From Patescibacteria group bacterium (lineage in GTDB: Bacteria; Patescibacteriota; Minisyncoccia; Minisyncoccales; Staskawiczbacteraceae), in assembly GCA_018829965.1 (NCBI GenBank), contig JAHJTG010000005.1, positions 49,558-113,557 of the forward strand: a stretch of 64,000 nt of DNA, read 5' to 3'. Shown here piece by piece: positions 27,718-62,488 of this stretch. Position 1 is the first letter of the stretch. Every line of letters starts with the position of its first letter. The position numbers and the translations under genes were made by a program. The notes under the pieces were generated by a model. That model was given only the letters and a program-made list of their open reading frames with translations. It was not told the origin of the DNA and did not search any database.

Positions 27718-28446
27718 TTAACGAATTTCACAGATTTTAAAAAACGGGGATATTTCTTTTTTGACAGAAATTAACCATTCTTCGGGGTATGGCTTTATTT
27801 TTTCAAAACTGGAATCAATTGTTTTTTCCGGACGAAAGTTTTGTAAATAATATTTAACATTTGTTCCTCCTATCCATTTTGCAATTTCTAAGAAATCTTC
27901 TTTTTTATTAACAGTCGGCACCGCCGTCGTCCTGAATTCAAAGTCAATTTTCCCTTTTCTTAATATCTCAACACTTTTTTTAATCTCCTTTTCGTATTTT
28001 TGGATTTGGGATTTGGGGGTTTTTTGGGATTTAGGATTTAGGATTTGGGATTTAAACACCAAAGGGGTTTTGATATCCATCGCCACATAATCTATCAACT
28101 TCTTGTCTATTAATTTTTCTAACATTTCTGGATTTGAACCATTAGTATCTAATTTCACTAAAAAACCCATTTTTTTTATTTTCTTTATAAGCTCTGGTAA
28201 ATCTTTATTCATACTCGGCTCTCCTCCGCAGATCACAACTCCTTCTAACAATCCCTTTCTGCTTTCTAAAAAATCAAAAACTTCCTTCTCTGTTATTCTT
28301 GGTTGTTTTTTTATTTTTTCCGGTAAAACCAATTCTGGGGAATAGCACCATGGGCAAAAAAAATTGCAACCGGAAATAAAAACCGTGCAAGCTAACTTGC
28401 CCGGAAAATCAATGAGAGTATTTTTTTGTAACCCTCCAATTATCAT
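27718..28446 (-). CDS. nrdG: anaerobic ribonucleotide reductase activating protein (radical SAM)
   Basis: 242 aa with CNFFCPWC (CxxxCxxC), directly downstream of nrdD. It carries an in-frame heptamer-repeat insert (…FKSQILNPKSQKTPKSQIQK…). Confidence 0.8.
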   Translation of the reverse strand: MIIGGLQKNTLIDFPGKLACTVFISGCNFFCPWCYSPELVLPEKIKKQPRITEKEVFDFLESRKGLLEGVVICGGEPSMNKDLPELIKKIKKMGFLVKLDTNGSNPEMLEKLIDKKLIDYVAMDIKTPLVFKSQILNPKSQKTPKSQIQKYEKEIKKSVEILRKGKIDFEFRTTAVPTVNKKEDFLEIAKWIGGTNVKYYLQNFRPEKTIDSSFEKIKPYPEEWLISVKKEISPFFKICEIR

Positions 28447-28456: not shown

Positions 28457-31400
28457 TTAAATGAATTGCCCCGGTGTTATTTTATATTCCTTCCTCTCTT
28501 TATACTCCTGCTTTTTCCCTTTATGCCATTGTTGTATGGGACGGTAATATCCGACCACCCTAGAATAAACTTCGCAAGGTTGCTTAACCAGACATTTCGG
28601 ACACTCAAAATGTTCTCCATCTAAATATCCGTGAGAGGGACAAATTGAAAAAGTCGGAGTTAAAGTAACATATGGTAAATGAAATTTTTCAAAAACTTTT
28701 TTAATTAATTTTTTTGCCATTTCAGGGTCAGAAATTCTTTCTCCTAAAAATAAGTGCAAAACCGTTCCGCCTGTATATTTAGTCTGTAAATCATCTTGAA
28801 GCTTTAATGCTTCAAAAATGTCATCGGTATAATTAACGGGAAGATGAGTTGAATTAGTATAATAAGGAAGTTCTTTTGTACCAGCAGTGACAATGTCTGG
28901 ATATTTTTCTTTGTCAGTTTTTGCTTGCCTATAAGATGTTCCTTCGCCGGGAGTAGCCTCCAGATTATACATATTTCCAGTTTCTTCCTGAATTTGTACT
29001 AATTTATCTCGCATAAAATCTAAAACTTCTAAAGCAAACTTCTTACCGCGCTTTGACCCGATATCTTCTCCGAGAAAGTTTAACAAAGCCTCATTCATTC
29101 CAATCAAACCAATTGTAGAAAAATGGTTTCCGAAATATGAATCCCTCATCTTCTTAACCGAGGATAAATAATGTTTAGAATAGGGATAAAGTCCTTTTTC
29201 TATAAAGTTTTCTAAAGCTTTTCTTTTTATTTCTAAACTTTCTTTGGCTAGCTCCATAAGACGATCCAATCTGCTAAAAAAATCTTTTTTAGTTTTTGAC
29301 AAATATCCGATGCGAGGTAAATTTATTGTCACCACACCAACAGATCCGGTTAAAGGGTTAGCTCCAAAAAGCCCGCCTCCTCTCTTGTAAAGCTCCCTGT
29401 TGTCCAATCTTAATCGGCAACAATTATGCGTAATAATTCCATTTGCTAATTGAAAAATATGGCCTTTACTGCCTAACTCAAAATCATAAACATAGCCCGT
29501 ATATTTTTGTCTTTCAATTTTAACGATTTTAATACCATAAAAATCTTTATATAATTTGTATTTTAAACTTTTGCCTCTTTTAAGTTTAAAATAAGACATA
29601 AGCCAATCGGGATAATCATTCGTTAATCTTAAAGAATAGCCAATTTTTTCTATATCTCCAGTTTTATTTTTAGATTCAAAATAAGTTGCATTAACCCCTA
29701 AACTTCTCGCTAATGTCATTGTGTCTATAACAAGATTTTTATTGCCTATATGTAAAACAACTACATTTTTAACAAAACCGTCGCTTTCAATTATCCCAAC
29801 AAAAACTCCTCTTCTAAACTCAATAGAACGAGCAAATATTTTAGAATTTAACCTTTTAACTAATGAGCCGTCTCCACGTACATATTCTTTTGTTAGTTCA
29901 ACTACTGATTTGCTCGCAACCGATACTTTCACATAAGAATGATCGTCGTTCAAAAAAATTGTAGCTTTTACACCGAATCTTTTCTCAACGATAGATTTAA
30001 TAAATTTTGCAAAATGAACCTCATTTTTGTTAAAAACAAAATTTGCAGTTGCGCCATTATGAGATACCCAACCATCTCCAATATAAAGACCAATTAATCT
30101 CCCTAAATCAAAATCTCCAAGTTCTCCATTATAAGGATATTTAGCAATAGGAAATTCGTCACCAATTTTTATATCCCTACTTTCTTTAATAACAATTTTG
30201 CCACCTTTAATAACAGCTGAAGGGTGATCTAAAGTCATTTTATCAATTAATCCATTATCTAATGTTAATTTCAAAATTTCTTCATTTTCCAATTTTATCT
30301 TTATAACATCCTTTACTGGTTCAAATTTCCCATTTATAAGCACATCAATTGGGTTATCTCTTTTTATAAAATCATCTACTATCCTTCTAATTTCTGTCTT
30401 AGCAATTATACCATTTGCATTTCTATAAATAATTTGCGTAGATGGTAATTTGCACATCGAACGCGCGTCTTCCGGGTTCATATCTGATTGAATAAAATTG
30501 GAGAAGTAATTTACTCCATATTTTGCAGTTGCCTCCCACAATGGTTTTAAAACAGGGTTGTCCCAATCAAAATCTTTTGTTATAGAAACTGTTGGAATTG
30601 GGAACGTAAAAGGCTTGCCAGTAGCATCCCCTTCCATTAAGCCTTCGTAGAAAGCCCTTATAAGCATATTCATTTCTTCTTGAAATTCTCCGTATATTTC
30701 TTTTTGGGGCTTCCCGCCTACAATTACGGGCTGTTTGGCTAAAAATGACGGCGCTTTAATGTCTAAAGTTACGTTTAAAAATGGCGTTTGAAATCCAACT
30801 CGGGTCGGCACCATGCAACTGTACAAAAACTCTTGCATTGCCTGTTTTACTTGAGGATATGTTAAGCCATCATAACGAATAAAAGGAGCCAGGAGCGTAT
30901 CAAAATTAGAAACAGCGTTAGCACCTGCAGTTTCACCCTGTACGGTATAAAGGAAGTTAACTAATTGACCTAAAGCAGTTCTTAAATGTTTTGCTGGTCT
31001 ACACTCTATCTTTCCTACCACGCCTCCAAAACCTCTCATCAGTAAGTCATAAAGATCCCATCCCATACAATACGGCGCTAAAATCTCTAAATTATGAATA
31101 TGGAAATCTTCTTCAGCCGCCGCCTCTCTTATTTCCTTTGGATAGATTTTATTAAGCCAATACTTTTTTGAAATATAAGAACCGACATATTGGTTCAATC
31201 CTTGTAAAGAAAAGGTCATATTGGCATTCTCATTGACTTGCCAATCAACTTCTTGTAAGTAACTATCTATCTTTTCGCTTGATTCATCAACAGCTTTTGT
31301 CGCTTCTCTTATTTTTCTTCTTTGTTCCCTGTAAAGAATGTAAGCTTTTGCGGTTTCTACATATCCTTCCAAAATCAAAACCTCTTCAACCACATCTTGA

Positions 31401-31612
31401 ATTTGTTCTACTTGAGGAATTTCGTCTTTTTTAAAACGGCGGTTTAAAATTTGGAGAACCCTATTAGAAATCCGCCGAGATTTCGGGCCGTTACCCTCTC
31501 CGGTGGCGGTTAAAGCTTTATGGATAGCATCAGTAATCTTTATTTGGTCAAAATCCATAATCATTCCGTCCCTTTTTCTAATTTTTATAATTCGGTTTTT
31601 TATTTTCGGCAT
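28457..31612 (-). CDS. nrdD: anaerobic ribonucleoside-triphosphate reductase (class III) interrupted by an intein
   Basis: 1051 aa with an N-terminal ATP-cone, a C-terminal glycyl-radical region (RVVGYY) and a Zn ribbon (CPKCLVKQPC). A 344-aa insertion is bounded by Cys387 and …THN730/Cys731. Confidence 0.9.
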   Translation of the reverse strand: MPKIKNRIIKIRKRDGMIMDFDQIKITDAIHKALTATGEGNGPKSRRISNRVLQILNRRFKKDEIPQVEQIQDVVEEVLILEGYVETAKAYILYREQRRKIREATKAVDESSEKIDSYLQEVDWQVNENANMTFSLQGLNQYVGSYISKKYWLNKIYPKEIREAAAEEDFHIHNLEILAPYCMGWDLYDLLMRGFGGVVGKIECRPAKHLRTALGQLVNFLYTVQGETAGANAVSNFDTLLAPFIRYDGLTYPQVKQAMQEFLYSCMVPTRVGFQTPFLNVTLDIKAPSFLAKQPVIVGGKPQKEIYGEFQEEMNMLIRAFYEGLMEGDATGKPFTFPIPTVSITKDFDWDNPVLKPLWEATAKYGVNYFSNFIQSDMNPEDARSMCKLPSTQIIYRNANGIIAKTEIRRIVDDFIKRDNPIDVLINGKFEPVKDVIKIKLENEEILKLTLDNGLIDKMTLDHPSAVIKGGKIVIKESRDIKIGDEFPIAKYPYNGELGDFDLGRLIGLYIGDGWVSHNGATANFVFNKNEVHFAKFIKSIVEKRFGVKATIFLNDDHSYVKVSVASKSVVELTKEYVRGDGSLVKRLNSKIFARSIEFRRGVFVGIIESDGFVKNVVVLHIGNKNLVIDTMTLARSLGVNATYFESKNKTGDIEKIGYSLRLTNDYPDWLMSYFKLKRGKSLKYKLYKDFYGIKIVKIERQKYTGYVYDFELGSKGHIFQLANGIITHNCCRLRLDNRELYKRGGGLFGANPLTGSVGVVTINLPRIGYLSKTKKDFFSRLDRLMELAKESLEIKRKALENFIEKGLYPYSKHYLSSVKKMRDSYFGNHFSTIGLIGMNEALLNFLGEDIGSKRGKKFALEVLDFMRDKLVQIQEETGNMYNLEATPGEGTSYRQAKTDKEKYPDIVTAGTKELPYYTNSTHLPVNYTDDIFEALKLQDDLQTKYTGGTVLHLFLGERISDPEMAKKLIKKVFEKFHLPYVTLTPTFSICPSHGYLDGEHFECPKCLVKQPCEVYSRVVGYYRPIQQWHKGKKQEYKERKEYKITPGQFI
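29423..30454 (-). mobile_element. intein with a LAGLIDADG homing-endonuclease domain inside nrdD
   Basis: Starts at Cys387 (checked: codon TGC, preceded by an ATG Met) and ends with His-Asn followed by Cys (CAT-AAT-TGT). Two LAGLIDADG-like motifs: LIGLYIGDGWVS and FVGIIESDGFV. Confidence 0.8.
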
Positions 31613-31692: not shown

Positions 31693-31813
31693 GGGTCAAG
31701 TTTTCACCAATTTTTACAACAGAAATTGAATACTAATAATGACAATCGCAGGCGCTTCGCATATTATACAAACTATTATGTCTATTCTCTGCTGAAATTG
31801 GTGAAGGGTCAAG
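31693..31813. repeat. MITE-like ~121-bp element, copy 1 (terminal inverted repeats TCACCAATTT…AAATTGGTGA, flanked by GGGTCAAG)
   Basis: About 85% identical over ~120 bp to 40836-40956. Lies between the nrdD start and the ftsZ stop. Confidence 0.5.
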
Positions 31814-34716: not shown

Positions 34717-35719
34717 TTATTTACTGTCTTTAATATATAATTTTAAAATCTTATTTTTAATTTTATAAGTATTGCCGTGTTTTATTAGTCCTAAATAAGA
34801 AGCGAGGGTTTTAATGTTTAAATCTTTATTTATATTTTTAAATATTCTTCTCTTTGTAGCCGTACGAAGCACCCGATGGTCTGGAAAATTGATCCATCCC
34901 AAAAAATCAACTCCCGAAAATAAAATTTTAATGAATATTTTATCGGAATGCATAATAAGTTTTAATCTGTTTTTTAAAAAATTGTTAATTATTTCAATTA
35001 AACTTTCTATATGTTTTTTGTCTTTTGATAAAATAATAAAGTCGTCAGCATATCTAATATAGTGTTTCTCTTTTAATTTATGTTTTGCAAAATTATCAAA
35101 TTCATTCATATAAACATTAGCGAAAAGCTGCGAAGTTAAGTTTCCAAGAGGCAAACCAGTCCCTATTTTTCCTGAATTAAAACTGAATATTATCTCCTTT
35201 AAAACATTTATAACATTTTCATCTGATATGTATTTTTGTAAAATCTCCAACAATATTTGCTGATTAATACTTGCAAAAAAACTTTTTAATATCGCATTTT
35301 AAAACCCAGCAGGTTTTTGTGTTATTTTTTGAAACAATGTAGGCAAACTCTCTGAACCTATTTATTGCCCTATGCGTTCCTTTATTGTCTCTACAAGAAA
35401 AAGAATCTGGAATAAATGTCCCATTAAAAAATGGGCGCAATATGCGATATACGGCACGGTGTAAAAGACGGTCGCGGACGCTGGCTTTGTGGATTGTTCT
35501 TGTTTTTGGGTCGCTTATTTTGAAACATTGGTAGTTGCCGTGTTCGTATATATGATTTTTTAAATCATGGTGCAATGATAAAATATTATCCATTAAATAA
35601 AATGAAAACATTAGAACATCTTTTCTGTTCCTCTTTCCCCTAACAAAGGCTCTCCATGCATTTAATAAATTATCAACACTAATTATATCTTCAAATTTAT
35701 GTCTCAATTTAATCCTCAT
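34717..35719 (-). pseudogene. DGR-type reverse transcriptase (DGR-1) split by a +1 frameshift in a T7 homopolymer
   Basis: Two ORFs (35264-35719, 151 aa; 34717-35253, 178 aa) together align along the full length of the intact RT at 53541-54533. The break is at …CDIKKFF where this copy has AAAAAGTTTTTTT (7 T) and the intact copy has 6 T. Deleting one T restores FFASI…. Carries the IGNLTSQ and YIRYADDF motifs. Confidence 0.75.
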
Positions 35720-36085
35720 AATAATTTTTTAAACCTCGCCAACAACCAATTTAGTTTGAGTATAATTCAAAAATTAACTAATACCTATAAAGTATGGTAT
35801 GAATATTTACCTGACTTTCCTAAAGATTCAAAATATACCCTTGGCGCTAAGGTTGATTCTTTATTTTTAGAAGTAATTGAAGAAATAATAAAAGCGAGCA
35901 GTTCAGACAAGACAGAGAAACTAATTTTTCTTAAAACCGGTTCTGCTAAGTTAGATTTACTTAAATTTTTTTTGCAAATTGTTTGGGAGATAAAATCTTT
36001 AGATAATAAAAAATATATAAACCTTTCTGAAAAACTGAACGAAATTGGGAAAATGCTGGGGGGATGGCTTAAGTCGTTAAAATAA
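35699..36085 (+). CDS. avd: Avd-like four-helix-bundle accessory protein of DGR-1
   Basis: 128 aa with LPDFPKDSKYTLGAKVDSLFLEVIEEIIKA, matching the FPK-E-Y-L…NI-EG pattern of the four-helix-bundle family to which DGR Avd belongs. Nearly identical over the C-terminal 100 aa to the ORF at 54513-54896. Encoded divergently, with its 5' end overlapping the RT start. Confidence 0.55.
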   Translation: MSQFNPHNNFLNLANNQFSLSIIQKLTNTYKVWYEYLPDFPKDSKYTLGAKVDSLFLEVIEEIIKASSSDKTEKLIFLKTGSAKLDLLKFFLQIVWEIKSLDNKKYINLSEKLNEIGKMLGGWLKSLK

Positions 36086-36119
36086 AAACCACCCAAAGGG
36101 GTGGAAAAAACAAAGAGAT

Positions 36120-36256
36120 TTGCGGGGGAGGACGAAGACGAAATGATTGTTGCTATTCCAAACGTTGTCAGAATTGTCATAGTAGCTGTTGAGCCACAGA
36201 CTATTGTCATTATGCTCCACATTGAACAGCTTGAGATCGCCATCCGAGTCAGTAAT
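36120..36256 (-). repeat. DGR-1 template repeat (TR1), 137 bp
   Basis: Aligns without gaps to VR1 (36636-36772) with 10 mismatches, 9 of them at TR adenines in the minus-strand coding sense. The 3' end in coding sense is GC-rich and identical (…CGTCTTCGTCCTCCCCCGCAA). Confidence 0.8.
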
Positions 36257-36631
36257 ATATAAAGCGTCATCTATGCCACTGCCCATTGAATGCTCTCCGG
36301 GCTGAATCTTATTCGGTATCTTAATATACCTTAACACCTTATACCAAGTATCTTCATTTTTTAAAAATCAGAGATGACTCTTTTGAAAGGCGTACCCGTC
36401 AAAATTCTGCATACATCTGAAATATAGAATTCGGCCACCTGAAGCCGTAACCGCAGATTTATTAGCCTACTATCCGATTTCAATTTTAGCATATCGGGAG
36501 AAAAAAAAGAACCCCTCTTTGCATTTTTAAATTGCATGAGGGGTCTTTGTCTTTTGCGTCTCTTGAAGTTTTAAGGAACCAAGCGTTCAAAGAAGAACAA
36601 AGGTTCCAAGCTACCAAGAGTATTTTGAAGA

Positions 36632-37258
36632 TTACTTGCGGGGGAGGACGAAGACGAAAGGATAGTTGCCATTCCAAACGCTGCCAGAATGGGCATAGTA
36701 GCTGTTGAGCCACAGACTATTGTCATTATGGTCCACATGGAACAGCTCGAGATCGCCATCCGAGTCAGTAATTGGCTCCATGGCGATAATAAGTACTTCG
36801 CCTTTGGGCTGGTCTTTGTACTGTAAGCGCAGTTGGGGGCCGACTTCATTCGGGCAGAGTTCTAAACCGAGCTCTTTTGCTCTGGCGTAAATCTTCTCAC
36901 GAGTCTCTCCATTCTTGAAACCGAGATCGGCAACACTGATGTTGACTAAATCCAATTCTGTTTCCTTGACGGTAACCGTGAACTGAGACTTGCCAAGAAT
37001 GTCGTTAGCGTATTTGCCGATTTCCATTCCGTTATCCTTTATGGCTTTACGGAAGTCGTCGGCGGTTGTGATGCCAGTGCCGAGGGTGATGGTTTGGAAA
37101 ATTTTAAAACTTGGCATCGTTTCTGGCGGACATAAGGCATTTTTGAGAACTTTTTGAAGACCCTTAGGATTCTCAATCCAGCTTTGCATCAGATCATCTG
37201 GCATTTCGGGTAAATTTTGTGCTACTACTCCAACAAATTTTGCAGTTTGTTTGTGCAT
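36632..37258 (-). CDS. DGR-1 target (variable) protein with a C-terminal VR
   Basis: 208 aa with SD AAAGGAG 8 nt upstream. C-terminus …DSDGDLELFHVDHNDNSLWLNSYYAHSGSVWNGNYPFVFVLPRK is encoded by VR1; the TR encodes …FNVEHNDNSLWLNSYYDNSDNVWNSNNHFVFVLPRK, Asn-rich as AAY codons. Confidence 0.75.
   Translation of the reverse strand: MHKQTAKFVGVVAQNLPEMPDDLMQSWIENPKGLQKVLKNALCPPETMPSFKIFQTITLGTGITTADDFRKAIKDNGMEIGKYANDILGKSQFTVTVKETELDLVNISVADLGFKNGETREKIYARAKELGLELCPNEVGPQLRLQYKDQPKGEVLIIAMEPITDSDGDLELFHVDHNDNSLWLNSYYAHSGSVWNGNYPFVFVLPRK
36636..36772 (-). repeat. DGR-1 variable repeat (VR1)
   Basis: See TR1. Ends at the stop codon of the target gene. Confidence 0.8.
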
Positions 37259-40835: not shown

Positions 40836-40956
40836 TTGTCAACCCTTCACCAATTTTTTACAACAGAAAATGAACACTAACAATGACAGCCGCAGGCGCT
40901 TCGCATATTGTACAAACTATTACAATGATTCTCTGCTGAAATTGGTGAAGGGTCAA
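40836..40956. repeat. MITE-like ~121-bp element, copy 2
   Basis: Terminal inverted repeats CCCTTCACCAATTT / AAATTGGTGAAGGG. Followed by a hairpin plus T-run at 40973-41035. Confidence 0.5.
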
Positions 40957-41531
40957 GAATAGAATAAAAAAACCGAGACAGCTCATCAACTTCCAGTTTG
41001 GAAGGGAGCATCTCGGTTTAATTTTTTTACAACCCAGTTCTATTTTATATTAAAGTTTTTGTTATCCATCAACCCTTCCATATTTTGGAGTTTTTGGGTT
41101 AATTTGGTTATCCTTAACCTAATTAAATAGAATTTTTGGGCTAGGTTCGTTATTGAACCTCTTTTTGTAACTTTTTTTGGAAATAAAATTAAGTAAATCC
41201 GCTGAACTTACGCATAATTCTATACGTAATCCTCCTTTCGTTTCTTTATCACGAAGTTAATAACTAACTGTTAGAACGGCCTCCTTACCTGTACTAAGGG
41301 GGTTTTCCAGACTTGATTCCTGTTTCCATAGGAATTCTCCAAATAAAAGTTAAAGCAAAAGTTTCAAAAAACACTTTCTGCGCTTCTGTAATTGAAACGC
41401 AGTTGTAGTTAATAAACTAATACCTCGTAAAGAACTATCTTATATAGTAATCTTCTCTATAAAATTGTCAAGACAATTTTTCCACAGATTAAAAAAATGA
41501 TACAATAAGATATAAAATATTTCTTAAAATT

Positions 41532-49540: not shown

Positions 49541-49895
49541 ATAAGTTTATTTATGTTTTTTGATTATATCACTTTTCTCTTTTCTCGAGAAATAAAAAAG
49601 TCCCTACCGATAAGCGATAGGGACTTTATATAATCTATAAGATAATCAGCCGACAAATAATAATTTTTTGGATACTTATGTGAAAACGCACCTCCTTTCA
49701 TTTCTGCCATATAGTTTGGGTTAATCAAATTGATTAACCCAGGCCGACGCCGTCGAATCAGTCAATACTAAATAAGAAATGGACTTTTCTCGTCCTTCGC
49801 ATAGATATCACCTCCTTTATTTTGGCTCTTTTCGGTGGTTATTAAAGTTAATGAACTATACAACATAAATATAATACAGTATGCTAAAAGGCTTG

Positions 49896-50489
49896 TCAAT
49901 AGCGGATAATCTTTTCCCTCTCTTCCGTTAGGTCAACTACTTTTGACGGTCTACTTTTAGATAAATCTCCAGCGTCTATTATTAAACTGGGTTTTATTTT
50001 ATCTCTCGTAAATTGTTCTAAAATCTCCCTAATCTTTACTGTCGCAGGATTTCCTGAAATATTAGCTGAAGTCTGGGCAATAGGAAAATTTATTTTTTCA
50101 AATAAATCTCTTATTAAATTATAATCCGGGATTCTCATACCAATTGTTTTATTTTTCGCAATAACGCCTTTCGGTAAATTATTTTTTGCCTGCAAAATAA
50201 CTGTTATTTTCCCGGGCCAAGCTTTTCTCAAAAATTTTTCCTGCTCTTTGTTAATAAAAGCATACTTTCTCGCCATTTTTATATCTTTAACAAAAACAGC
50301 CAAAGGTTTTACCTTCGCCCGTTTCTTTATCTTAAAAATTTTCTCAACTGTTTTCTTATTTCTAGCATCTGCTAAAATACCGTAAACCGTATCTGTAGGA
50401 AGAACCAATATCTTACCGTTCTTAAATAGCCTTACAGCTTTTTTTATTATATCCTTAGAATTATTTTCTTCTAGCTTTACAATCTCCAT
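49896..50489 (-). CDS. tsaC: L-threonylcarbamoyladenylate synthase (YrdC/TsaC family)
   Basis: 197 aa with ILVLPTDTVYGILADA. Confidence 0.8.
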   Translation of the reverse strand: MEIVKLEENNSKDIIKKAVRLFKNGKILVLPTDTVYGILADARNKKTVEKIFKIKKRAKVKPLAVFVKDIKMARKYAFINKEQEKFLRKAWPGKITVILQAKNNLPKGVIAKNKTIGMRIPDYNLIRDLFEKINFPIAQTSANISGNPATVKIREILEQFTRDKIKPSLIIDAGDLSKSRPSKVVDLTEEREKIIRY

Positions 50490-50557
50490 AATTATGAAGT
50501 AGGGAGGAGTAAAAATTTATTTTTGTTCCGACCGAATGATTAATTATATAAATTGCC

Positions 50558-51298
50558 TCAACGGTTTCTATTTTCTTTTAAGAATTTAGATAATTTTACA
50601 ACATCTCCAGGGTTACCGAAATCTTTCCAATAATCTTTAATCTTTTTAACTTTTACCTTTTTCTCTTTAGCTAAAAGAGAAACTGCATCAGTAATTTCAA
50701 ATTCCCCACGAGGAGATTTTTTTATCTTAGATAACTTACTAAAAACTTCTGGAGTAAATTTATACATCCCAGCATTGATTAAATCTCCCATATATTTTTT
50801 GGGCTTTTCTACAATCTTTTGCAAAAACTCGCCACCATTGACAAGAACACCGTATTTCTCAGGATTTTCGTGACGAAGGCCAGCAACATAATTATATTTA
50901 TCATTAATATTCATCGCCTTTAAATCTTCTACAGAATAGAGATTATCTCCGCAAATAAATAAAAACTGCTCTTTAATAATATCCTTCACGCACATTAGAG
51001 GACAGGCAGTGCCATATATCTTTTCTTTAGGACCCAATTTATCAAACTGGCTCACAAAGACTATTTTAGATTTACCGCTACAAGGCGAAGTATAACTTTT
51101 AATAAAATCCCGAATCATTTCTTCTTTATGTCCAACAACCAAAATTATTTCGCTATAACCAGCCCTGAAGAGATTATCTAAAACATAAGATAAAAAGGGT
51201 CTTTTTTGGACCTTAATTAAATGCTTGCACTTGTTTTTTGTTAGATGAAGCATGCGGGTTCCCTGCCCCGCAGCAGCTACCACAACTTTTTTAATCAT
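50558..51298 (-). CDS. sugar-phosphate nucleotidyltransferase
   Basis: 246 aa with N-terminal VVAAAGQGTRM (GxGTR). Substrate cannot be called. Confidence 0.6.
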   Translation of the reverse strand: MIKKVVVAAAGQGTRMLHLTKNKCKHLIKVQKRPFLSYVLDNLFRAGYSEIILVVGHKEEMIRDFIKSYTSPCSGKSKIVFVSQFDKLGPKEKIYGTACPLMCVKDIIKEQFLFICGDNLYSVEDLKAMNINDKYNYVAGLRHENPEKYGVLVNGGEFLQKIVEKPKKYMGDLINAGMYKFTPEVFSKLSKIKKSPRGEFEITDAVSLLAKEKKVKVKKIKDYWKDFGNPGDVVKLSKFLKENRNR

Positions 51299-51860
51299 GC
51301 GCTAATCCAAATGCCTTTTTATTTAATTCTAAATATTTCTCAGGAATAACTTTCTTAATAGCCCCTAAAATAGAGGTGGTTTTTAAAGGAATTAATTTCT
51401 TGTTAACCGCATAACCCAAAAGGTAAATTCCACTAACGACTTCGTTATTCAATTCTTTTTTACAAATTTCAGAAGCAGAGATTAGATATAAGTTGCTTTT
51501 TGAAATCATTTTTAACTTTCCTAAAATTTCTTCTTTCTTTAAGGATCCTGAAAACGGCAGATAATAATTATTTATTAAAAACTTAGTTTTGCTATTGGCT
51601 TGAGAAAAACCCCTTAATCCTTCCAACACCTCTAACCCAATTATTAAATCAGCCTGGCCTCTTGAAACCAGCGGAGAATAAACTTTCTCGCCGAACCTTA
51701 TATGCGTTTCAACGCTTCCACCTCTCTGTGAAAGCCCATGCAGTTCAGATGACTTTACGTCATAACCTTCAATGAAAGCAGCTTCATTAATAATTGAAAG
51801 CAAGGTAATTATTCCCTGACCACCAACCCCTCTTAGTATAAGATTAAAAGTTTTATCCAT
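51291..51860 (-). CDS. iorB: indolepyruvate/2-oxoacid:ferredoxin oxidoreductase beta (gamma-type) subunit
   Basis: 189 aa with LRGVGGQGI. Confidence 0.6.
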   Translation of the reverse strand: MDKTFNLILRGVGGQGIITLLSIINEAAFIEGYDVKSSELHGLSQRGGSVETHIRFGEKVYSPLVSRGQADLIIGLEVLEGLRGFSQANSKTKFLINNYYLPFSGSLKKEEILGKLKMISKSNLYLISASEICKKELNNEVVSGIYLLGYAVNKKLIPLKTTSILGAIKKVIPEKYLELNKKAFGLAHD

Positions 51861-53505
51861 TTTGTTTCTTTAATAGAAGAGCGCAAATTCTTCGACAAAC
51901 TATTAGCGATACTTCTTTTTTTATTAAGAATTCTTTAACTGCTTCTTCTAATTCTTTTATATTAATAGGGTCTAAAACTTTAATATGCTTTACCCCGCAA
52001 GCCTTAGCAATTTCTTCTATCTTCAATTCCTCTGTATTTTCACCCATCAATGTCTTCCCCATACCAGGATTTACTTGATGACCAGTCATAGCTGTTATTC
52101 TATTGTCTAAAACAACAATCAAAGGACTTGATTTATTATAGACAGTATTTATAAGTGCTGGAATTCCTGAATGGAAAAATGTTCCATCCCCCATAATGGA
52201 TATGACCTTTTGGTCCGTAGCCTTCCCTACGCCATGCGATATCCCCAAGCCAGCTCCCATCGAAAAAAGATAATCCTGCATATTATGAGGAGAAAGACCT
52301 GCAATCATATTACAACCGATGTCGCCACCAAAAATTGTTCCCTCAGTAGCCACTTTTTTTATTATAGGTAAAATATACCAATAAGGACAACCTTCACAAA
52401 GCCTAGCACTTCTTTTGGGTAAGTCTAAGATTTTAGACTTCTCGATTACAAATTTCTTGCCCGTTATTTTCGATAAAGCGATACAGACCTTATCTGTATC
52501 TAATTCTCCAACCGTTGGTAAAACATCTTTGCCATAAATAGTTAATTTATCTTTTGCTAAACGCACTATTTCATTTTCTAAATAAGGATCTAATTCTTCA
52601 ACAACTAGTATTTTCTTTTTGCCTTTTATAAAATCGGTAATCATTTTTTCTGGCAAAGGATAAAAAAATCCTAATTTTAAAACAGGTAGTTGTATTCCTA
52701 ATGTTTTAAGAGCTTCTAAAATATGCAGATAAGAAATACTAGAGGCGATAATGCCAATTTTATTCTTTTTGCCAATAACCTTATTAATTTTAGATTTTTC
52801 TGCAAATTGCCTGATCTTCTCAATTTTTTGCAAAAGCTCTTTTTTCATTTCTAAAACTCTCGGCGGCATTGTACAGAACTGATGCGGATTTTTTATAAAT
52901 ACGCCTTTTGGAATTTTGGATTTGGGATTTGAGATTTGTTTAGGGTTTAGGATTTGGGATTTAGAATTTATCGTAACTGGCATTTTTTGGTGAGAAACTC
53001 TCGTAGTTGTCCTTAAAATTACAGGGATATTAAATTTTTCTGATATTTCAAAGCCTAATTTTGTGAAATCACAGCATTCCTGCGGGTCTGAAGGATCTAA
53101 AATTGGTATACGGCTTAAATAAGCATATCCTCTTGAATCTTGCTCTGATTGGGCAGAACTATGACAAGAAGGATCATCTCCAATAAAAATTACCATCGGA
53201 CCTTTAGTGCCAGTATAGGCTAAAGGCAATAAGCTATCAGAGCAAACATTCACCCCAAAGCTTTTCATATTAACTAAAGTCTTTAAGCCAGAAAAACTAG
53301 CTCCGATTGCAACCTCTAGTGCAACTTTTTCGTTTGTTGACCATTCTGCATAAATACCTTTTTCCTTAGCAATATCTTTGAACCCATCTCCCACTTCAGC
53401 AGAAGGACATCCAGGATAACCGGAAACGAAATCAACGCCTGCTTCTAAGGCGCCCTGAACTATTGCTTCGTTGCCTAATAGAATCTTTTTCATATATATA
53501 AACAA
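51853..53505 (-). CDS. iorA: indolepyruvate:ferredoxin oxidoreductase alpha subunit (TPP-binding)
   Basis: 550 aa with N-terminal LLGNEAIVQGALEAGVDFVSGYPGCPSAEV and TPP motif MGDGTFFHSG. Carries an in-frame heptamer-repeat insert (…INSKSQILNPKQISNPKSKIPKG…). Confidence 0.7.
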   Translation of the reverse strand: MFIYMKKILLGNEAIVQGALEAGVDFVSGYPGCPSAEVGDGFKDIAKEKGIYAEWSTNEKVALEVAIGASFSGLKTLVNMKSFGVNVCSDSLLPLAYTGTKGPMVIFIGDDPSCHSSAQSEQDSRGYAYLSRIPILDPSDPQECCDFTKLGFEISEKFNIPVILRTTTRVSHQKMPVTINSKSQILNPKQISNPKSKIPKGVFIKNPHQFCTMPPRVLEMKKELLQKIEKIRQFAEKSKINKVIGKKNKIGIIASSISYLHILEALKTLGIQLPVLKLGFFYPLPEKMITDFIKGKKKILVVEELDPYLENEIVRLAKDKLTIYGKDVLPTVGELDTDKVCIALSKITGKKFVIEKSKILDLPKRSARLCEGCPYWYILPIIKKVATEGTIFGGDIGCNMIAGLSPHNMQDYLFSMGAGLGISHGVGKATDQKVISIMGDGTFFHSGIPALINTVYNKSSPLIVVLDNRITAMTGHQVNPGMGKTLMGENTEELKIEEIAKACGVKHIKVLDPINIKELEEAVKEFLIKKEVSLIVCRRICALLLKKQNG

Positions 53506-53540
53506 TTCTTATAATAACACAATTTTGTTGTTTTTTTAAA

Positions 53541-54533
53541 CTAAACAACAAAACTCTTAATAATCGCTTCTTTTGTTTTATAAGTATTGCCGTGTTTTAT
53601 CAGTCCAAAATAAGAATTAAGGGGTTCAATATTCAGATTTCTTTTTATCTTCTTAAACATTCTTCTCTTTGTAGCAGTGCGAAGTACCCGATGACTTGGA
53701 AAATTAACCCAACCCAAAAAATCAACCCCAGAGGATAGAGTTTTAATGAATATTTTGTCGGGATGCATGACAAGCCTTAATCTGTTTTGTAAAAAATTGC
53801 TAATTATTTGGATTAAATTTTCTATATGTTTTTTATCTTCAGACAAAACAATAAAATCATCGGCATATCTGATGTAGTATTTTCCTTTTAATTCATGCTT
53901 CATAAACTGGTCAAACTCATTCATATATACGTTGGCAAAAAGCTGAGAAGTTAAGTTGCCAAGAGGCAAACCGGTTTCTTGTTTTCCTGAATTAAAACTG
54001 AATATTATTTCTTTTAAAAGGTAAACAATATTTTTATCCAGTATGTATTGCTCTAAAATATTGACCAAAATATTTTGATCAATTGAGGCAAAAAACTTTT
54101 TAATATCGCATTGTAAAACCCAGCAGGTTTTTGTGTTGTTTTTTGAAACAATATAGATAAACTCTCTGAACCTATTTATGGCCTTATGCGTTCCTTTATA
54201 ATTTCTGCAGGAAAACGAATCTGAAATAAAGGTTTTATCGAAAAACGGGTATAATATACGATATACGGCGCGATGTAATAGGCGATCGCGAACGCTAGCT
54301 TTGTGGATTATTCTTGGTTTTGGATCGCTTACTTTAAAACATTTGTATCCGCCGTGTTTGTAATTATTATTAATCAGGTCGTAATACAATGATAAAATAT
54401 TATCCATCAGACTAAATTGGAATTCTTGTACATCTTTTTTGTTTTTCTTTCCCCTGATAAATTCTTTCCATGTATCTAATAAATTATCAATACTAATAAT
54501 ATCTTCAAATTTATGATTCAATCTTATTTTCAT
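53541..54533 (-). CDS. DGR reverse transcriptase (DGR-2), intact
   Basis: 331 aa from MKIRLNHKFEDI. N-terminal …W..F..GK..K…F…NIL.L..L…Y.HG.Y..F.V.DPK.R.I.KA.V.DR.LHRA pattern, the DGR-specific motif-4 signature LGNLTSQ, and catalytic YIRYADDF. No maturase or endonuclease domains. Confidence 0.85.
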   Translation of the reverse strand: MKIRLNHKFEDIISIDNLLDTWKEFIRGKKNKKDVQEFQFSLMDNILSLYYDLINNNYKHGGYKCFKVSDPKPRIIHKASVRDRLLHRAVYRILYPFFDKTFISDSFSCRNYKGTHKAINRFREFIYIVSKNNTKTCWVLQCDIKKFFASIDQNILVNILEQYILDKNIVYLLKEIIFSFNSGKQETGLPLGNLTSQLFANVYMNEFDQFMKHELKGKYYIRYADDFIVLSEDKKHIENLIQIISNFLQNRLRLVMHPDKIFIKTLSSGVDFLGWVNFPSHRVLRTATKRRMFKKIKRNLNIEPLNSYFGLIKHGNTYKTKEAIIKSFVV

Positions 54534-54896
54534 AATAATAATTTTACTTCTAACCCCCCATTTAGCTTGAGTATAATTCAAAAACTGACGCGGGTTTACA
54601 AACTATGGCAAGAATATTTGCCTGATTTTCCAAAAGATTCAAAATATACTCTTGGCGCAAAAGTTGATTCTTTGTTTTTAGAAGTAATTGAAGAAATAAT
54701 AAAAGCAAGCAGTTCAGATAAAACAGAAAAACTAATTTTTCTTAAAACCGCTTCTGCTAAATTAGACCTGCTTAAATTTTTCTTGCAGATTGTTTGGGAG
54801 ATAAAATCTTTAGATAATAAGAAATACATCTTACTTTCTGAAAAACTGAATGAAATAGGCAAAATGCTTGGAGGATGGATCAAATCGTTAAAGTAA
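54513..54896 (+). CDS. avd: Avd-like four-helix-bundle accessory protein of DGR-2
   Basis: 127 aa, same family pattern as avd of DGR-1 and >90% identical to it over the C-terminal ~100 aa. Divergent to the RT and overlapping its start by ~21 nt. Followed by hairpin GGCGATAAAAATA/TATTTTTATCGCC. Confidence 0.55.
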   Translation: MIQSYFHNNNFTSNPPFSLSIIQKLTRVYKLWQEYLPDFPKDSKYTLGAKVDSLFLEVIEEIIKASSSDKTEKLIFLKTASAKLDLLKFFLQIVWEIKSLDNKKYILLSEKLNEIGKMLGGWIKSLK

Positions 54897-55005
54897 GCAA
54901 AGCATATTTTCGTCATTCATTCGGCGATAAAAATATTAATATTTTTATCGCCCTCATTTATTAGAGAATAAAAACCGCCTAAAAAGGCGGAAAAAACGAA
55001 GAGAT

Positions 55006-55136
55006 TTGCGACGACCGAGGAAGCGATCGTCCTCATACCAAGCATACCCGAAAGAGCGCAGGTTCAAGCGCCGATCATCAGCATGGCTGCACAAACACGG
55101 CACGAGGAGATAGCCACCGGGAATCCGCCAGGACGA
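55006..55136 (-). repeat. DGR-2 template repeat (TR2), 131 bp
   Basis: Aligns without gaps to VR2 with 8 mismatches, 6 at TR adenines in coding sense. Encodes Asn/Tyr-containing SSWRIPGGYLLVPCLCSHADDRRLNLRSFGYAWYEDDRFLGRR. The bidirectional hairpin CCGCCtaaaaaGGCGG lies just outside at 54975-54997. Confidence 0.75.
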
Positions 55137-55503
55137 TATATATAAAACATCATCTATGCCACTGCCCTTCGAAGCTATAAAACGATCTCAGGGCTGTATC
55201 TAATTCGGTATCTAAAATACCTTAATGCTTTATACCAAGTAATCTTCGTTTTTTACTAAATCAGGAACGACTCTTCCAGAAGCCGTAACCGCTGGAATCC
55301 TGCGTTATCCTGAAATATAGAATTCGGCCGCCTGAAGCCTTGACCGCAAACATATTAGCCTACTATCCGAATTAATAATATCATTATTTGTAAAATGTGA
55401 AAACCCCGAAACGAACATTCGTTTCGGGGTTTTATTGCCAAGGGTTCAAGAGACTAAGATTCAATGAAGAATCAAGGTTCCAAGTTCCCAAGGATTTTGA
55501 AGA

Positions 55504-56103
55504 TTACTTGCGACGACCGAGGAAGCGATCGTCCTCATACCAAGCAGACCCGAAAGAGCGCAGCGGCACGCGCCGATCATCAGCAAGGCTGCACAAACAC
55601 GGCACGAGGAGACAGCCACCGGGAACCCGCCAGGACGACTTTAGAGCAACTATCGGAAATTGTCGTTGAAGCTCCGGCTGATCTGATCCTAACGCGAGCA
55701 GGTCTGCGATATCTCCAGGCTCACATCCAGCTTGGGACATTTCAGCAATCGCATCATCACTCGAGATATTACGTTTGAAGTCGAAAAGGATGAATTCTTT
55801 CTCTTCTTTACCACTACCCACGACCGGAAAATGCTCTTGAGTGATATCACTATTTACACAATCATATTTACCAGCTTTAATCATTTCCGCTAAGGTCTTG
55901 GTGCGGTCCACTGTGAGGTTATAGATTGGACGGACAACACCAACAATGAATTTAGCAATTTGTTTTACCAAATCCTCACCCTCAGGTGTCGCGAGCTTAC
56001 GAATGCTCTCGTCATCTCCGCCTAGCTTATAAACTTCTTTTACTAATGCCTGAATTATAGACATTAACACTCCCATCCACGATACAAGATTTGACTTCGC
56101 CAT
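55504..56103 (-). CDS. DGR-2 target (variable) protein with a C-terminal VR
   Basis: 199 aa with SD AAAGGAG upstream. C-terminal 44 aa are encoded by VR2. The middle region is weakly similar to the DGR-1 target. Confidence 0.7.
   Translation of the reverse strand: MAKSNLVSWMGVLMSIIQALVKEVYKLGGDDESIRKLATPEGEDLVKQIAKFIVGVVRPIYNLTVDRTKTLAEMIKAGKYDCVNSDITQEHFPVVGSGKEEKEFILFDFKRNISSDDAIAEMSQAGCEPGDIADLLALGSDQPELQRQFPIVALKSSWRVPGGCLLVPCLCSLADDRRVPLRSFGSAWYEDDRFLGRRK
55508..55638 (-). repeat. DGR-2 variable repeat (VR2)
   Basis: See TR2. Ends at the target stop codon. Confidence 0.75.
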
Positions 56104-56284
56104 TTTTATCTCCTTTTAACTTTTTCGGCAAATCTCCCGTTCCAGAACAACTGAAATCTCAGACTCGCCTTTGGTTGAAACCATTAAACTGCTTTTTTGT
56201 AATCTAATGGTTTCAACCAAATTTATCGCAAGTAATTTTAGATATAAAAGAGCTTACTTACTATTTATAATATAACACGCCTCC

Positions 56285-58753: not shown

Positions 58754-58894
58754 ATTATTAAATATAATAACACGAACAATATTCTTTAAAAAGGTTCCTT
58801 TTGACAAAATTATACTTTTGCGGTATTGTTTACATAAATAGCGTTAATAAACTAGAATTTTGTTCTTTTACTTTTTTAAGAAGGGATATAAATA

Positions 58895-59863
58895 ATGAAA
58901 TCGAATGGAGAATATCTTGATTTTGAAGAAACTATTAAGGCGATAGACGAAAGAATAGCAGAACTATTAAAAGAAAGCTCTCAACACGGAATTGATTACT
59001 CAGCTGAAATCCGCAAACTTCAACAACTGCAAATAATAGAGCTCCAGCAAATCTATTCAAACCTCACCGCCTGGCAAACAGTTCAAGTCGCAAGACATCC
59101 TCAAAGACCTATCTTAGGAGACTATTTAAATTTAATGGTAAAGGATTTCCGCCAGCTTCACGGCGACAGATGTTTCGGCGATGACCCAGCAATAATCTGC
59201 GGCACCGGTCATATCGGCAGAGAAAAGTTTTTAGTTATAGGCCAAAACAAGGGTCGCGATACAAAAGAAAAGATAAAATGTAATTTTGGATGTCCCAATC
59301 CTGAAGGCTATCGCAAGGCTCTTGCCAAGATGAAATTCGCTGAGAAATTCAACATCCCAGTGGTGACCCTGATTGACACACCAGGCGCTTATCCAGGTAT
59401 CGGTGCCGAAGAACGAGGCCAAGCTCGAGCTATTGCCGTAAATCTTATGGAAATGTCGAGACTGCGAGTACCGATCATATGTATAGTTATCGGTGAAGGC
59501 GGTTCAGGTGGCGCATTAGGTATTGGCGTAGGTGATCGAATGGCTATGCTTGAATTTGCTTATTGCTCTGTTATCTCTCCCGAAGGTTGTGCGGCAATTT
59601 TATGGAGAAACGGCTCAGAGGCACAAAAAGCTGCAGAGGCTTTAAAGCTCACGAGTAAAGACTTATTTAAGCTCAAATTAATGGATAAGATTATTTCTGA
59701 ACCTCTTGGTGGTGCCCATAGAAATATATATGAAACCATCTTTAATGTTAAAAAATACATTATTAAAACCATTAAAGAGCTCAAATCTTTATCGGCTGAA
59801 ACTCTAGTTAAAAACCGCTACCAAAAACTGCGCTTGATTGGCACAAAAGCAGTTCTTTATTAA
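58895..59863 (+). CDS. accA: acetyl-CoA carboxylase carboxyltransferase alpha subunit
   Basis: 322 aa, full-length AccA-like with a GGAHRN-type C-terminal region. GC content is visibly higher than the flanks. No accB/C/D in the window. Confidence 0.75.
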   Translation: MKSNGEYLDFEETIKAIDERIAELLKESSQHGIDYSAEIRKLQQLQIIELQQIYSNLTAWQTVQVARHPQRPILGDYLNLMVKDFRQLHGDRCFGDDPAIICGTGHIGREKFLVIGQNKGRDTKEKIKCNFGCPNPEGYRKALAKMKFAEKFNIPVVTLIDTPGAYPGIGAEERGQARAIAVNLMEMSRLRVPIICIVIGEGGSGGALGIGVGDRMAMLEFAYCSVISPEGCAAILWRNGSEAQKAAEALKLTSKDLFKLKLMDKIISEPLGGAHRNIYETIFNVKKYIIKTIKELKSLSAETLVKNRYQKLRLIGTKAVLY

Positions 59864-59865
59864 AA

Positions 59866-59898
59866 ACCTGTTCGTTTTCTGAGCAGGTTTTTTTATTG
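59866..59898 (+). terminator. rho-independent terminator after accA
   Basis: CCTGTTCG-ttttctga-GCAGG followed by TTTTTTT. Confidence 0.5.
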
Positions 59899-59916
59899 CA
59901 AAAATAGCGGATATTA

Positions 59917-60750: not shown

Positions 60751-60842
60751 ATAGCTATTATAGAATAATTTTCAGAAATTAAAAAAGCGCGGTGGTTTGC
60801 CATCGCGCTTAACTGTTTCAAAATATTTCTAATTACATCTGG

Positions 60843-61900: not shown

Positions 61901-61965
61901 AATTGTTAAAAAACTTGATTTAATACTTAATTTAATAATCTAACAGGTTTAAAAATCTTTGTCAA
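61901..61965 (-). promoter_or_regulatory. promoter-containing 65-bp direct repeat, copy 1, driving a long leader of the GC-rich gene
   Basis: About 90% identical to 62489-62553. On the minus strand it reads TTGACAAAG-…-TAAATT (-35/-10-like, 17-bp spacer). Confidence 0.4.
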
Positions 61966-62487: not shown

Positions 62488-62488
62488 T

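Follow-up and report, generated by a model that had tools for sequence, protein, structure and literature searches.

The window, i.e. the whole 64-kb stretch of DNA which was analysed, contains two related cassettes, DGR-1 and DGR-2, and in DGR-1 the reverse transcriptase (RT) gene is interrupted by one additional base in a short run of T. Is this base an error of assembly or sequencing, the first step of an ordinary gene loss, or a reversible switch for targeted hypermutation? All three options had been put forward in a sequence-only reading of the same DNA; an error proved unlikely, a recent loss (early pseudogenisation) fits best, and a switch is unsupported at this site. RT1 is probably an ordinary, recently inactivated paralog, in which simple slippage produced either decay or a revertible off-allele and not an evolved switch, with DGR-2 being active.

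Architecture and classification of DGR-1

DGR-1 is a bona fide diversity-generating retroelement (DGR) of the CPR type, and every part of the cassette is present (Table 1). Read from the 64-kb window, the parts follow each other in the order target gene with VR1, structured leader, TR1, reversed avd and RT. The cassette exhibits an RT domain with its motifs, an adenine-biased pair of template repeat (TR) and variable repeat (VR), a VR at the 3' end of the target gene and an Avd protein, as is characteristic of the class. The target gene followed by TR-(avd reversed)-RT, an arrangement found here in a Patescibacteria genome, corresponds to architecture B3, as defined in PMC5758913, and to DGR clade 2; the same layout was found in 101 relatives. 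The proposal that DGR-1 is a second, diverged paralog built like DGR-2 was confirmed, only the homopolymer having been misplaced. The two cassettes also diversify different proteins, as had been suspected, since BLASTP revealed no relatedness between the two target sequences (E=49). DGR-1 would have arisen together with DGR-2 by duplication and would have served a different target with a C-type-lectin fold.

Table 1 Features of DGR-1 and of the sister cassette DGR-2 (positions in the window).
Feature	Position	Strand	Remarks
RT1, reverse transcriptase gene of DGR-1	34717-35719	-	333 codons after removal of one T
Lesion, T7 run (A7 on the plus strand)	35275-35281	-	in the Phe-Phe codons of the invariant CDIKKFF motif
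avd1, accessory variability determinant	35699-36085	+	reversed, between TR and RT
Stem-loop	36089-36104	-	6-bp stem, CUUU tetraloop, then T-run; 15 nt 3' of TR1
TR1, template repeat	36120-36256	-	137 nt, 38 adenines, many in AAY codons
Structured leader RNA	36257-36480	-	~225 nt, directly 5' of TR1
GC-rich hairpin, then T8	36501-36545	-	read by eye; missed by the consensus scan (long loop)
VR1, variable repeat	36636-36772	-	codes for the last 45 residues of the target
Target gene of DGR-1	36632-37258	-	208 aa; C-terminal C-type-lectin-like fold carrying VR1
DGR-2, intact sister cassette	53541-56103	-	for comparison
RT2	53541-54533	-	part of DGR-2
avd2	54513-54896	+
TR2	55006-55136	-	part of DGR-2
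DGR-2 leader	55137-55373	-	part of DGR-2
VR2	55508-55638	-	part of DGR-2
Target 2	55504-56103	-	part of DGR-2

TR1 and VR1 align over 137 nt with 93% identity and exactly 10 mismatches. Nine of the mismatches fall on the 38 TR adenines (hypergeometric p=3.6e-5), all of them in codon positions 1 or 2, and the remaining one (G>C) directly follows a TR adenine; an eleventh difference, A>G, is located at the 3' edge of the repeat. The coordinates of both repeats, the 208-aa target and the adenine bias of the mismatches, all noted earlier from the sequence, were thereby reproduced. The 3' end of VR1, GTCCTCCCCCGCAAG, is IMH-like. Comparison of target 1 with Pfam and NCBIfam gave no match.

Avd1 is recognised by the Pfam family bAvd (4.8e-19) and by the NCBIfam equivalog DivGenRetAVD (83.2 bits at a cut-off of 80). 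Its true start probably lies near 35759, judging from the first ~17 codons, which are not conserved with avd2. The stem-loop 3' of TR1 was obtained as a terminator-like match in the consensus scan and likely ends the TR RNA. Stem-loops immediately 3' of TR have been reported (bioRxiv 10.1101/2023.10.23.563531), and the one in DGR-1 is a candidate Avd-binding stem-loop. Its stem exhibits compensatory changes between the two cassettes (CCACCC/GGGTGG in DGR-1 vs CCGCCT/AGGCGG in DGR-2). The GC-rich hairpin further upstream, whose DGR-2 counterpart is likewise a hairpin followed by a T-run, probably serves as the target-gene terminator.

The leader of ~225 nt upstream of TR is a covariation-supported, hitherto undescribed RNA element which is absent from Rfam. 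It is present at the same position in 101 related loci; 40 of the 47 pairs of the consensus show compensatory changes, and 96.4% of the alignment cells are paired compared with 40-49% in slid controls. The DGR-1 copy retains 46/47 consensus pairs and differs from the DGR-2 copy in a compensatory manner. A scan against Rfam in E-value mode over positions 33500-57500 returned only a tRNA and two weak matches well below the gathering scores, and no Rfam model, the RT-1 to RT-19 motifs included, matched near the leader of either cassette. The leader appears to be the cis-acting part of the DGR RNA.

A single additional T interrupts RT1

As encoded, RT1 consists of two ORFs on the minus strand, 35264-35719 (151 aa) and 34717-35253 (178 aa), which are annotated in the NCBI record as MBU2539632.1 and MBU2539631.1. 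At the slip the minus strand reads AAAAAG-TTTTTTT-GC and is translated into CDIKKFFCKY followed by a stop; in the same alignment column DGR-2 carries TTTTTT, and RT2 and the relatives have T6 or TTCTTT. The homopolymer had previously been placed at about 35255-35262, which turned out to be wrong (see Table 1 for its position). Deletion of one T yields a gap-free RT1 of 333 aa with an RVT_1 match of 3e-26 and 74% identity to RT2, and the LGNLTSQ and YADD motifs are readable in the part downstream of the break. The statement that only a +1 shift interrupts the frame was therefore correct, and the insertion from T6 to T7 is the sole lesion of RT1. The closest relatives of RT1 are DGR-type RTs of CPR bacteria, a family of >8000 CPR proteins with 65-75% identity. 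Look-ups of exact products gave no record for the 151-aa N-terminal fragment, the 177-aa C-terminal fragment or P0001, nor for the target-2 allele of the window or the 840-aa LeuRS ORF.

The insertion is located five codons past the catalytic Asp of the CDIKKFF motif, and the frame stops after 151 residues, whereby LGNLTSQ and YADD are removed; RT1 appears to be non-functional. A functional split RT was considered and rejected, because the break lies inside the palm beside the catalytic Asp and no Shine-Dalgarno sequence precedes the TTG of the second ORF.

Full-length RT1 might nevertheless be produced from the 7T allele by recoding, if the ribosome slipped by +1 on UUU_UUU_U or if slippage occurred during transcription; the run would then serve as a programmed throttle of the RT level. 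After a +1 step on U7, tRNA-Phe would again find a perfect match, and the weakness of an rU:dA hybrid promotes slippage of the RNA polymerase; efficient transcriptional slippage, however, is obtained with runs of 9 or more, which U7 does not reach. Furthermore, a programmed shift site should be conserved among homologues, whereas all 75 scored GTDB relatives are in frame and none of about 113 metagenomic T6 sites is 7T. The sequence upstream lacks a stimulator resembling a Shine-Dalgarno element, and the stop follows three codons downstream instead of occupying the A site. The upstream AAAAAG would favour a -1 shift, which leaves the frame unrestored, and a -1 frameshift at this position was rejected for that reason. 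Programmed recoding is accordingly very hard to reconcile with the site, although the polymerase or the ribosome could slip on U7 at a low rate and so yield traces of the full-length protein.

Authenticity of the seventh T

The finding hangs on one base, and homopolymer indels are a classic class of error; the genome might therefore truly be 6T, with the seventh T stemming from assembly or sequencing. Against this, 7T was also read in the DNA of three further assemblies (two run accessions), namely the ENA/MEGAHIT contig and the Logan assembly of ERR2191545 and the Logan assembly of SRR6514730, each with 0 mismatches to the window, although they may share a sample. In the NCBI MAG and in a JGI contig the RT is also called as two pieces, which implies 7T on the level of gene calls, not of DNA. 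The contig name (k127) points to a MEGAHIT short-read assembly, and 7-mers are usually unproblematic in Illumina-type short reads. Moreover, 83 other long homopolymers in the window (≥7 A/T or ≥6 G/C) lie within intact ORFs, RT1 being the only split gene seen there. The lesion of RT1 is real, and an artefact would be a most improbable explanation.

Age of the break

Comparison of RT1 with RT2 (NG86; dS ~0.8) gave a dN/dS of 0.189 for the part before the slip and of 0.191 for the part after it, and avd1 has a dN/dS of 0.11. Every difference between TR1 and VR1 is found at an A or directly 3' of one, and no drift is apparent. Since dN/dS is equal on either side of the slip, and avd, leader RNA, TR and VR are all intact, we infer that the break is very young compared with the split between the two paralogs. 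The perfect upkeep of the other parts is also expected of a reversible off state.

Slippage in a short homopolymer, from T6 to T7, would have broken RT1 as the first decay step of a redundant cassette; alternatively, T7 would be a neutral off-allele which is in principle revertible. Among related RT loci about 8-10 of roughly 100 are disrupted, at least four of them by a frameshift.

Activity of the two cassettes

The ENA contig was assembled independently from the same strain, and over the roughly 24 kb that were compared it departs from the window at just 11 bases. It is identical to the window over 12,387 bp around DGR-1, VR1 included, and between 49541 and 61753 around DGR-2 there are 11 substitutions, all of which are located inside VR2. 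Of these 11, six coincide with TR2 adenines and, of the remaining five, four lie immediately 3' of such an adenine; the target-2 proteins of window and ENA contig differ in 8 residues, all in the VR. For VR1, no heterogeneity at adenine sites was found among the consensus sequences of the window, the ENA contig and the partial Logan contig of SRR6514730, in which the first 72 nt of VR1 are identical; a consensus may mask low-level variation. With all 11 differences in VR2 and none in VR1, DGR-2 is active on its own target without detectably servicing VR1, and DGR-1 looks frozen. Cassette 1 seems to be currently off, with VR1 kept at its last diversified sequence. That the Logan contig breaks off 10 nt before VR2 was considered as proof of heterogeneity and set aside; it is suggestive only, no known variable site being adjacent.

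A cassette with a dead RT1 could still be diversified if RT2, together with Avd2 or Avd1, used the TR1 RNA, which would turn DGR-1 into an RT-less satellite. Such an action of RT2 in trans on TR1/VR1 had been suggested earlier. It would be in line with the intact state of avd1, leader, TR1, 3' stem-loop and IMH-like end, with the similarity of the two leaders (77-85% identity, same fold) and of the two Avd proteins (89% identity), and with a plasmid-borne avd-TR-brt which works in trans in Bordetella, according to work cited in PMC5758913. The recency of the break explains the preserved parts equally well, however, and the specificity may have diverged, as RT1 shares only 74% identity with RT2 and the leaders differ in 15 pairs. 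VR1 is the same in all three sequences over the stretch available in each while VR2 differs at 11 positions; with 38 adenines in TR1 hardly any retrohoming event would escape notice. The trans action is thus weakly disfavoured, and we consider it unlikely. The contrast between VR1 and VR2 is drawn from two consensus sequences and a partial third, and it could go back to one or two retrohoming events; because the consensus sequences are so few, it constitutes weak evidence that DGR-1 is off or that RT2 is unable to act in trans.

Is the T run a slipped-strand switch?

The T6/T7 run could also represent a reversible slipped-strand switch for the diversification of target 1, the sampled consensus being OFF. 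A one-unit change of a homopolymer in an otherwise intact cassette is what such a switch would leave behind. In the same RT clade, RT ORFs carry dinucleotide tracts at ~6x the density of their flanks (p=3e-5). In two related RT lineages near-identical genes differ in their frame downstream of a (GA)n tract, and all three frames are represented. One lineage has 2 contigs in the ON state and 27 in the OFF state, the other about 29 ON and about 19 OFF; the tracts, which also occur in RT genes of Berkelbacteria, occupy either a surface loop of the RT or its 5' end. This polymorphism was established via protein clusters, and a BLAST among the SSR-bearing loci gave no near-identical pairs. Relatives of RT1 thus carry a genuine (GA)n ON/OFF polymorphism, which makes fluctuating selection on RT activity in the clade more plausible a priori. 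The two RTs of the window are free of such SSR tracts.

At the RT1 site itself the evidence points the other way. Tract-length polymorphism, as expected of a phase-variable locus, was not seen: every assembly carries 7T as its consensus, behind which a minority 6T allele may lie hidden, the contigs continue unbroken through the site, and no 6T allele of RT1 was found among 5.8 billion protein clusters. A scan of JGI metagenomes for the RT1-specific slip site with 5-9 T gave 0 matches, and 7T followed by G occurred in 0 of about 113 T6-bearing relatives. A clade-wide scan for CDIKKFF with T6 or T7 yielded 120 loci; the three 7T matches among them were discarded as chance, since none belongs to an RT gene, one falling in a MiaB-like ORF and two in non-coding DNA. 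Instead of being enriched, T6 is avoided at the Phe-Phe codons, where 44.8 of 75 relatives would be expected to use it and 29 do (p=3e-4, kinship not corrected), and TTCTTT is over-used (36 vs 13 expected in the same 75 relatives, again with kinship not corrected), which is the opposite of what would be expected of an evolved contingency tract. Next to recognised phase-variable homopolymers a run of seven A/T is short, and the window holds 82 runs of exactly seven A/T.

The slipped-strand idea is consequently sound as far as physical feasibility and the on/off tracts of related CPR RTs are concerned, and it is unsupported at the RT1 site. A phase-variable RT1 is doubtful, and that the run is a working reversible off-switch, and as such an instance of a wider slipped-strand control of DGR RTs in CPR bacteria, is at least as doubtful.

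Comparison with known systems

The CPR DGRs described by Wu et al. 2018 (B3, PMC5758913) and Roux et al. 2021 (clade 2, PMC8144416) share with DGR-1 the gene order with avd reversed, and non-adenine substitutions as observed here have been reported for them (PMC5758913, PMC8144416). Clade 2 also has small targets without a recognisable domain, like the target of DGR-1 (PMC8144416). The genome of DGR-1 holds two cassettes; several are found in about 10% of DGR-bearing genomes (PMC5758913, PMC8144416). DGR-1 differs from these curated sets in its frameshifted RT, as such copies were removed from them as non-functional.

With the Bordetella phage BPP-1 (mtd-avd-TR-brt) DGR-1 has in common RT and Avd, the adenine differences between TR and VR, the VR at the C-terminus of a CLec-fold protein, the GC-rich IMH-like 3' end and a stem-loop 3' of TR. 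Unlike in BPP-1, avd is encoded on the opposite strand, the element is chromosomal in a cell and not in a phage, and the target is without a recognisable receptor-binding context. Furthermore, in DGR-1 a leader of ~225 nt precedes TR, and a short hairpin and then the reversed avd follow it, whereas in BPP-1 TR is followed by a spacer region and brt.

RT1 resembles the degenerate DGRs of Wu et al. in having its RT ORF interrupted by a premature stop; in contrast to them it carries a single lesion with no further decay, which indicates a very early stage. As in the contingency loci of Haemophilus, Neisseria and Campylobacter, a one-unit change of a tract in the 5' half of the ORF switches the frame. 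Unlike those loci, the tract is only 6-7 nt long and forms part of a conserved catalytic motif; the available data show no polymorphism of it, and as T6 it is avoided and not enriched in the family.

Biological meaning

DGR-1 is useful mainly as a natural control, in which the RT has just been knocked out and an intact sister cassette resides in the same genome. That VR2 varies while VR1 stays constant suggests that each RT serves its own template. Should reads turn out to be a mixture of 6T and 7T, targeted hypermutation itself would be switched stochastically; if the off-switch reading were true, hypermutation would be turned on and off cassette by cassette, and slipped-strand control of DGR RTs would be a so far undescribed habit of CPR bacteria. 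The more valuable leads are the (GA)n polymorphism of the relatives and the leader RNA, which bear on the control of DGR activity and on template recognition by the RT in a very large uncultured group.

Organisation of the two cassettes

DGR-1 is a complete diversity-generating retroelement (DGR), whose TR-(avd)-RT layout corresponds to architecture B3 of Wu et al. 2018 (PMC5758913), found in 90% of CPR DGRs. Avd1 matched Pfam bAvd (4.8e-19) and scored above the NCBIfam DivGenRetAVD equivalog cut-off. Over 137 nt TR1 and VR1 differ by 10 mismatches, nine of which are located at TR adenines (38 present, p = 3.6e-5), each of the nine affecting the first or second base of a codon; the remaining one is a G>C change immediately 3' of an adenine. 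The target protein showed no match in Pfam or NCBIfam, which agrees with DGR 'clade 2' of Roux et al. 2021 (PMC8144416). Its family comprises ~1400 CPR proteins of 205-215 aa, which are hypervariable, on a fixed scaffold, over the final ~45 residues.

Coordinates (plus-strand numbering) of the features in the window
Feature	Position	Strand	Remark
DGR-1	34717-37258	-	
DGR-1 target gene	37258-36632	-	208 aa; last 45 codons = VR1
VR1	36772-36636	-	3' end of target gene
Hairpin + T8		-	3' of DGR-1 target gene
DGR-1 leader	36480-36257	-	conserved, non-coding, ~225 nt; between target-gene hairpin and TR1
TR1	36256-36120	-	
Tetraloop hairpin, 6 bp, with T-run	36104-36089	-	3' of TR1
avd1	35699-36085	+	opposite strand to rest of DGR-1
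RT1	35719-34717	-	
DGR-2	53541-56103		
DGR-2 leader	55137-55373	-	
NrdD gene	28457-31612	-	
Repeat pair	31711-31813, 40855-40957		
Repeat pair	61896-61978, 62481-62563		
Repeat pair	27975-28054, 52891-52970		GGATTT/GGGATTT-like short units

The sister cassette DGR-2 lies 18.8 kb away and is identical in layout. The RTs share 74% and the Avd proteins 89% identity, with a dS of ~0.8 between the paralogs. The target proteins show no sequence relationship to each other (E = 49) and consequently the cassettes diversify two different proteins, as the sequence-only reading had proposed. Mechanical start-codon calls let avd and RT overlap head-to-head by 21 nt in both cassettes (35699-35719 and 54513-54533), a spot that is occupied by a (GA)n tract in several relatives. 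Since the initial ~17 codons are not conserved between avd1 and avd2, the real avd1 start is probably located near 35759; even with this later start the divergent avd/RT promoters must lie inside coding sequence.

Directly 5' of TR, a structured RNA of ~225 nt was found at a fixed position in 101 related loci. Compensatory changes occur in 40 of its 47 consensus pairs, 96.4% of the cells are paired (40-49% in slid controls) and the covariation was matched by none of 500 shuffles. The leader has no match in Rfam 15, and no description of a large 5' domain of DGR RNA was found in Handa et al. RT/Avd probably recognise the DGR RNA through this part.

Elsewhere in the window, an intein with a LAGLIDADG-type insert lies in the gene of the anaerobic ribonucleotide reductase NrdD; the ENA gene call matches Pfam Intein_splicing and, faintly, LAGLIDADG_3. 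Three pairs of intergenic direct repeats show 78-89% identity.

A single extra T interrupts RT1

At the lesion the RT1 minus strand reads AAA TGC GAT ATT AAA AAG TTT TTT TGC AAG TAT TAA, RT2 being one T shorter (6T instead of 7T) at the same alignment column. Deleting one T restores a 333-aa RT (RVT_1, 3e-26) that aligns gap-free with RT2 and carries LGNLTSQ and YADD downstream. No further lesion was found in RT1, in line with the earlier claim that one extra T alone breaks the frame; the run itself is located at plus-strand 35275-35281, ~20 nt from where it had been placed.

In the NCBI MAG, of which a 219-kb contig contains the window, the RT1 pieces are annotated as separate proteins (MBU2539632.1 and MBU2539631.1). 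A sequencing or assembly error in a genome that truly has 6T, formerly kept as an option, is highly improbable: 7T recurs, without a single mismatch to the window, in three further assemblies, namely a 136.5-kb ENA/MEGAHIT contig and a Logan contig of run ERR2191545 and a Logan contig of run SRR6514730, and 83 other homopolymers (≥7 A/T or ≥6 G/C) in the window lie inside intact long ORFs. Furthermore, a 105-kb JGI contig codes for the same C-terminal RT1 piece, and RT1 is the sole split gene seen in the window.

Drift of the downstream half of RT1 over more than about one tenth of the period since the duplication would be expected to raise dN/dS visibly there. For RT1 against RT2, the Nei-Gojobori dN/dS is 0.189 before the slip and 0.191 after it. 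The dN/dS of avd1 is 0.11, and TR1/VR1 show no drift-type mismatches. Of the 47 consensus pairs of the family, the DGR-1 leader retains 46; at 15 pairs it differs from the DGR-2 leader, several via compensatory double changes. Judged by these equal ratios and by the undecayed avd1, leader and TR1/VR1, the break in RT1 is recent.

Diversification activity

The window was compared around both cassettes with the ENA contig, an independent assembly of the same strain. The two sequences agree at every base of a 12,387-bp stretch around DGR-1, which contains VR1, TR1 and the 7T run. Around DGR-2 (49541-61753) they differ by 11 substitutions, all in VR2 (55508-55638), which lead to 8 residue differences between the target-2 proteins, all within VR. 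Six of the 11 substitutions are located at TR2 adenines; of the remaining five, four are T/C>G changes immediately 3' of a TR2 adenine. The lone non-adenine change in VR1 shares this 'A+1' position, which suggests a dinucleotide-level misincorporation signature of this RT clade. In the Logan contig of SRR6514730 the first 72 nt of VR1 are exact and the contig stops at a stretch of >31 identical bases shared by VR1 and TR1; a Logan contig toward VR2 breaks off 10 nt short of it, which is only suggestive of VR2 heterogeneity.

At the level of assembly consensus, adenine variation was thus observed in VR2 and not in VR1. DGR-2 is demonstrably diversifying at present, while VR1 appears static, a contrast that is a weak test as one or two retrohoming events could suffice. 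It fits an inactive RT1 and RT2 without efficient action in trans on VR1. That RT2 keeps cassette 1 running, as had been considered, is improbable, given the unchanged VR1 beside a changing VR2.

Switch, recoding site or ordinary slippage

When the repaired RT1 was searched against 5.8 billion protein clusters, the best match was RT2 and nothing exceeded 75% identity; hence, no assembly with a 6T allele of RT1 was found. All of 75 GTDB relatives have the motif CDIKKFF (equivalent to window positions 35275-35296) unchanged and in frame. A metagenome scan at this motif, designed to detect T6 as well as T7, yielded T6 at ~113 RT loci and 7T at no RT locus; three further 7T matches were chance matches outside RT genes. 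Based on Phe codon usage elsewhere in these RT genes (77% TTT), T6 is under-used at the Phe-Phe codons (29 of 75 relatives, 45 expected, p = 3e-4, phylogeny not corrected), and TTC-TTT after AAAAAG occurs in 36 of 75 with 13 expected (L005-L084). The RT family seems to avoid the slippery T6 run, which looks like selection against it. With no 6T allele and no 7T relative, a selected reversible switch at this run, the slipped-strand option raised earlier, is unlikely.

Production of full-length RT1 from the 7T allele by recoding is very unlikely, considering the in-frame relatives and the lack of 7T in the scan. Moreover, the 7T site has no Shine-Dalgarno-like stimulator, and a stop codon follows three codons beyond the run. 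An AAAAAG-driven -1 shift upstream of T7 was rejected because it leads to the wrong frame. Overall, the RT1 T7 run found no support as a switch or recoding site.

Broken RTs are common in this clade: ~8-10 of ~100 loci in a motif-selected metagenome sample (L085-L204) carry premature stops or truncations, at least four of them frameshifts, one (L197) at an A7 run. It is thus no surprise that a redundant second cassette has a frameshifted RT. We consider it fairly probable that a real, recent and ordinary slippage mutation at the T run turned cassette 1 off, a state that would represent early pseudogenisation or a neutral off-allele. Of the earlier interpretation, the second diverged DGR and the frame break by a single base stand, and early pseudogenisation or recent loss fits best; the slipped-strand switch is unlikely.

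Repeat tracts in the RT genes of relatives

Outside the window, several relatives' RT frameshifts lie precisely at dinucleotide repeats, (AG)17, (GA)5-6 and (CA)13. In a set of 194 related RT loci, RT ORFs contain dinucleotide tracts of ≥5 units at six times the density of the flanks (13 vs 10, p = 3e-5); of the tracts in the flanks, four or five adjoin the RT 5' end. Tracts, mainly (GA)n of 5-17 units, are internal in eight loci (L110, L140, L153, L166, L167, L186, L195, L198) and located at the RT 5' end in eight others (L026, L039, L073, L079, L089, L092, L157, L172). Seven fall within a single loop that corresponds to RT1 residues ~180-188; depending on the locus, they either keep the frame, coding for (Arg-Glu)n, or are out of frame.

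Protein clusters (90% identity) contain RT genes that are otherwise identical yet continue after the tract in each of the three frames, on dozens of long contigs. For one Patescibacteria RT, 2 contigs encode a protein of 353 aa, 21 contigs one of 210 aa and 6 contigs one of 199 aa. In the second lineage, a Berkelbacteria RT, the lengths are 333 aa versus 198 and 212 aa, and the gene is ON in ~29 contigs and OFF in ~19. A literature search found no published description of SSR phase variation of DGR RTs, and these length variants look like genuine phase variation of this kind in CPR relatives.
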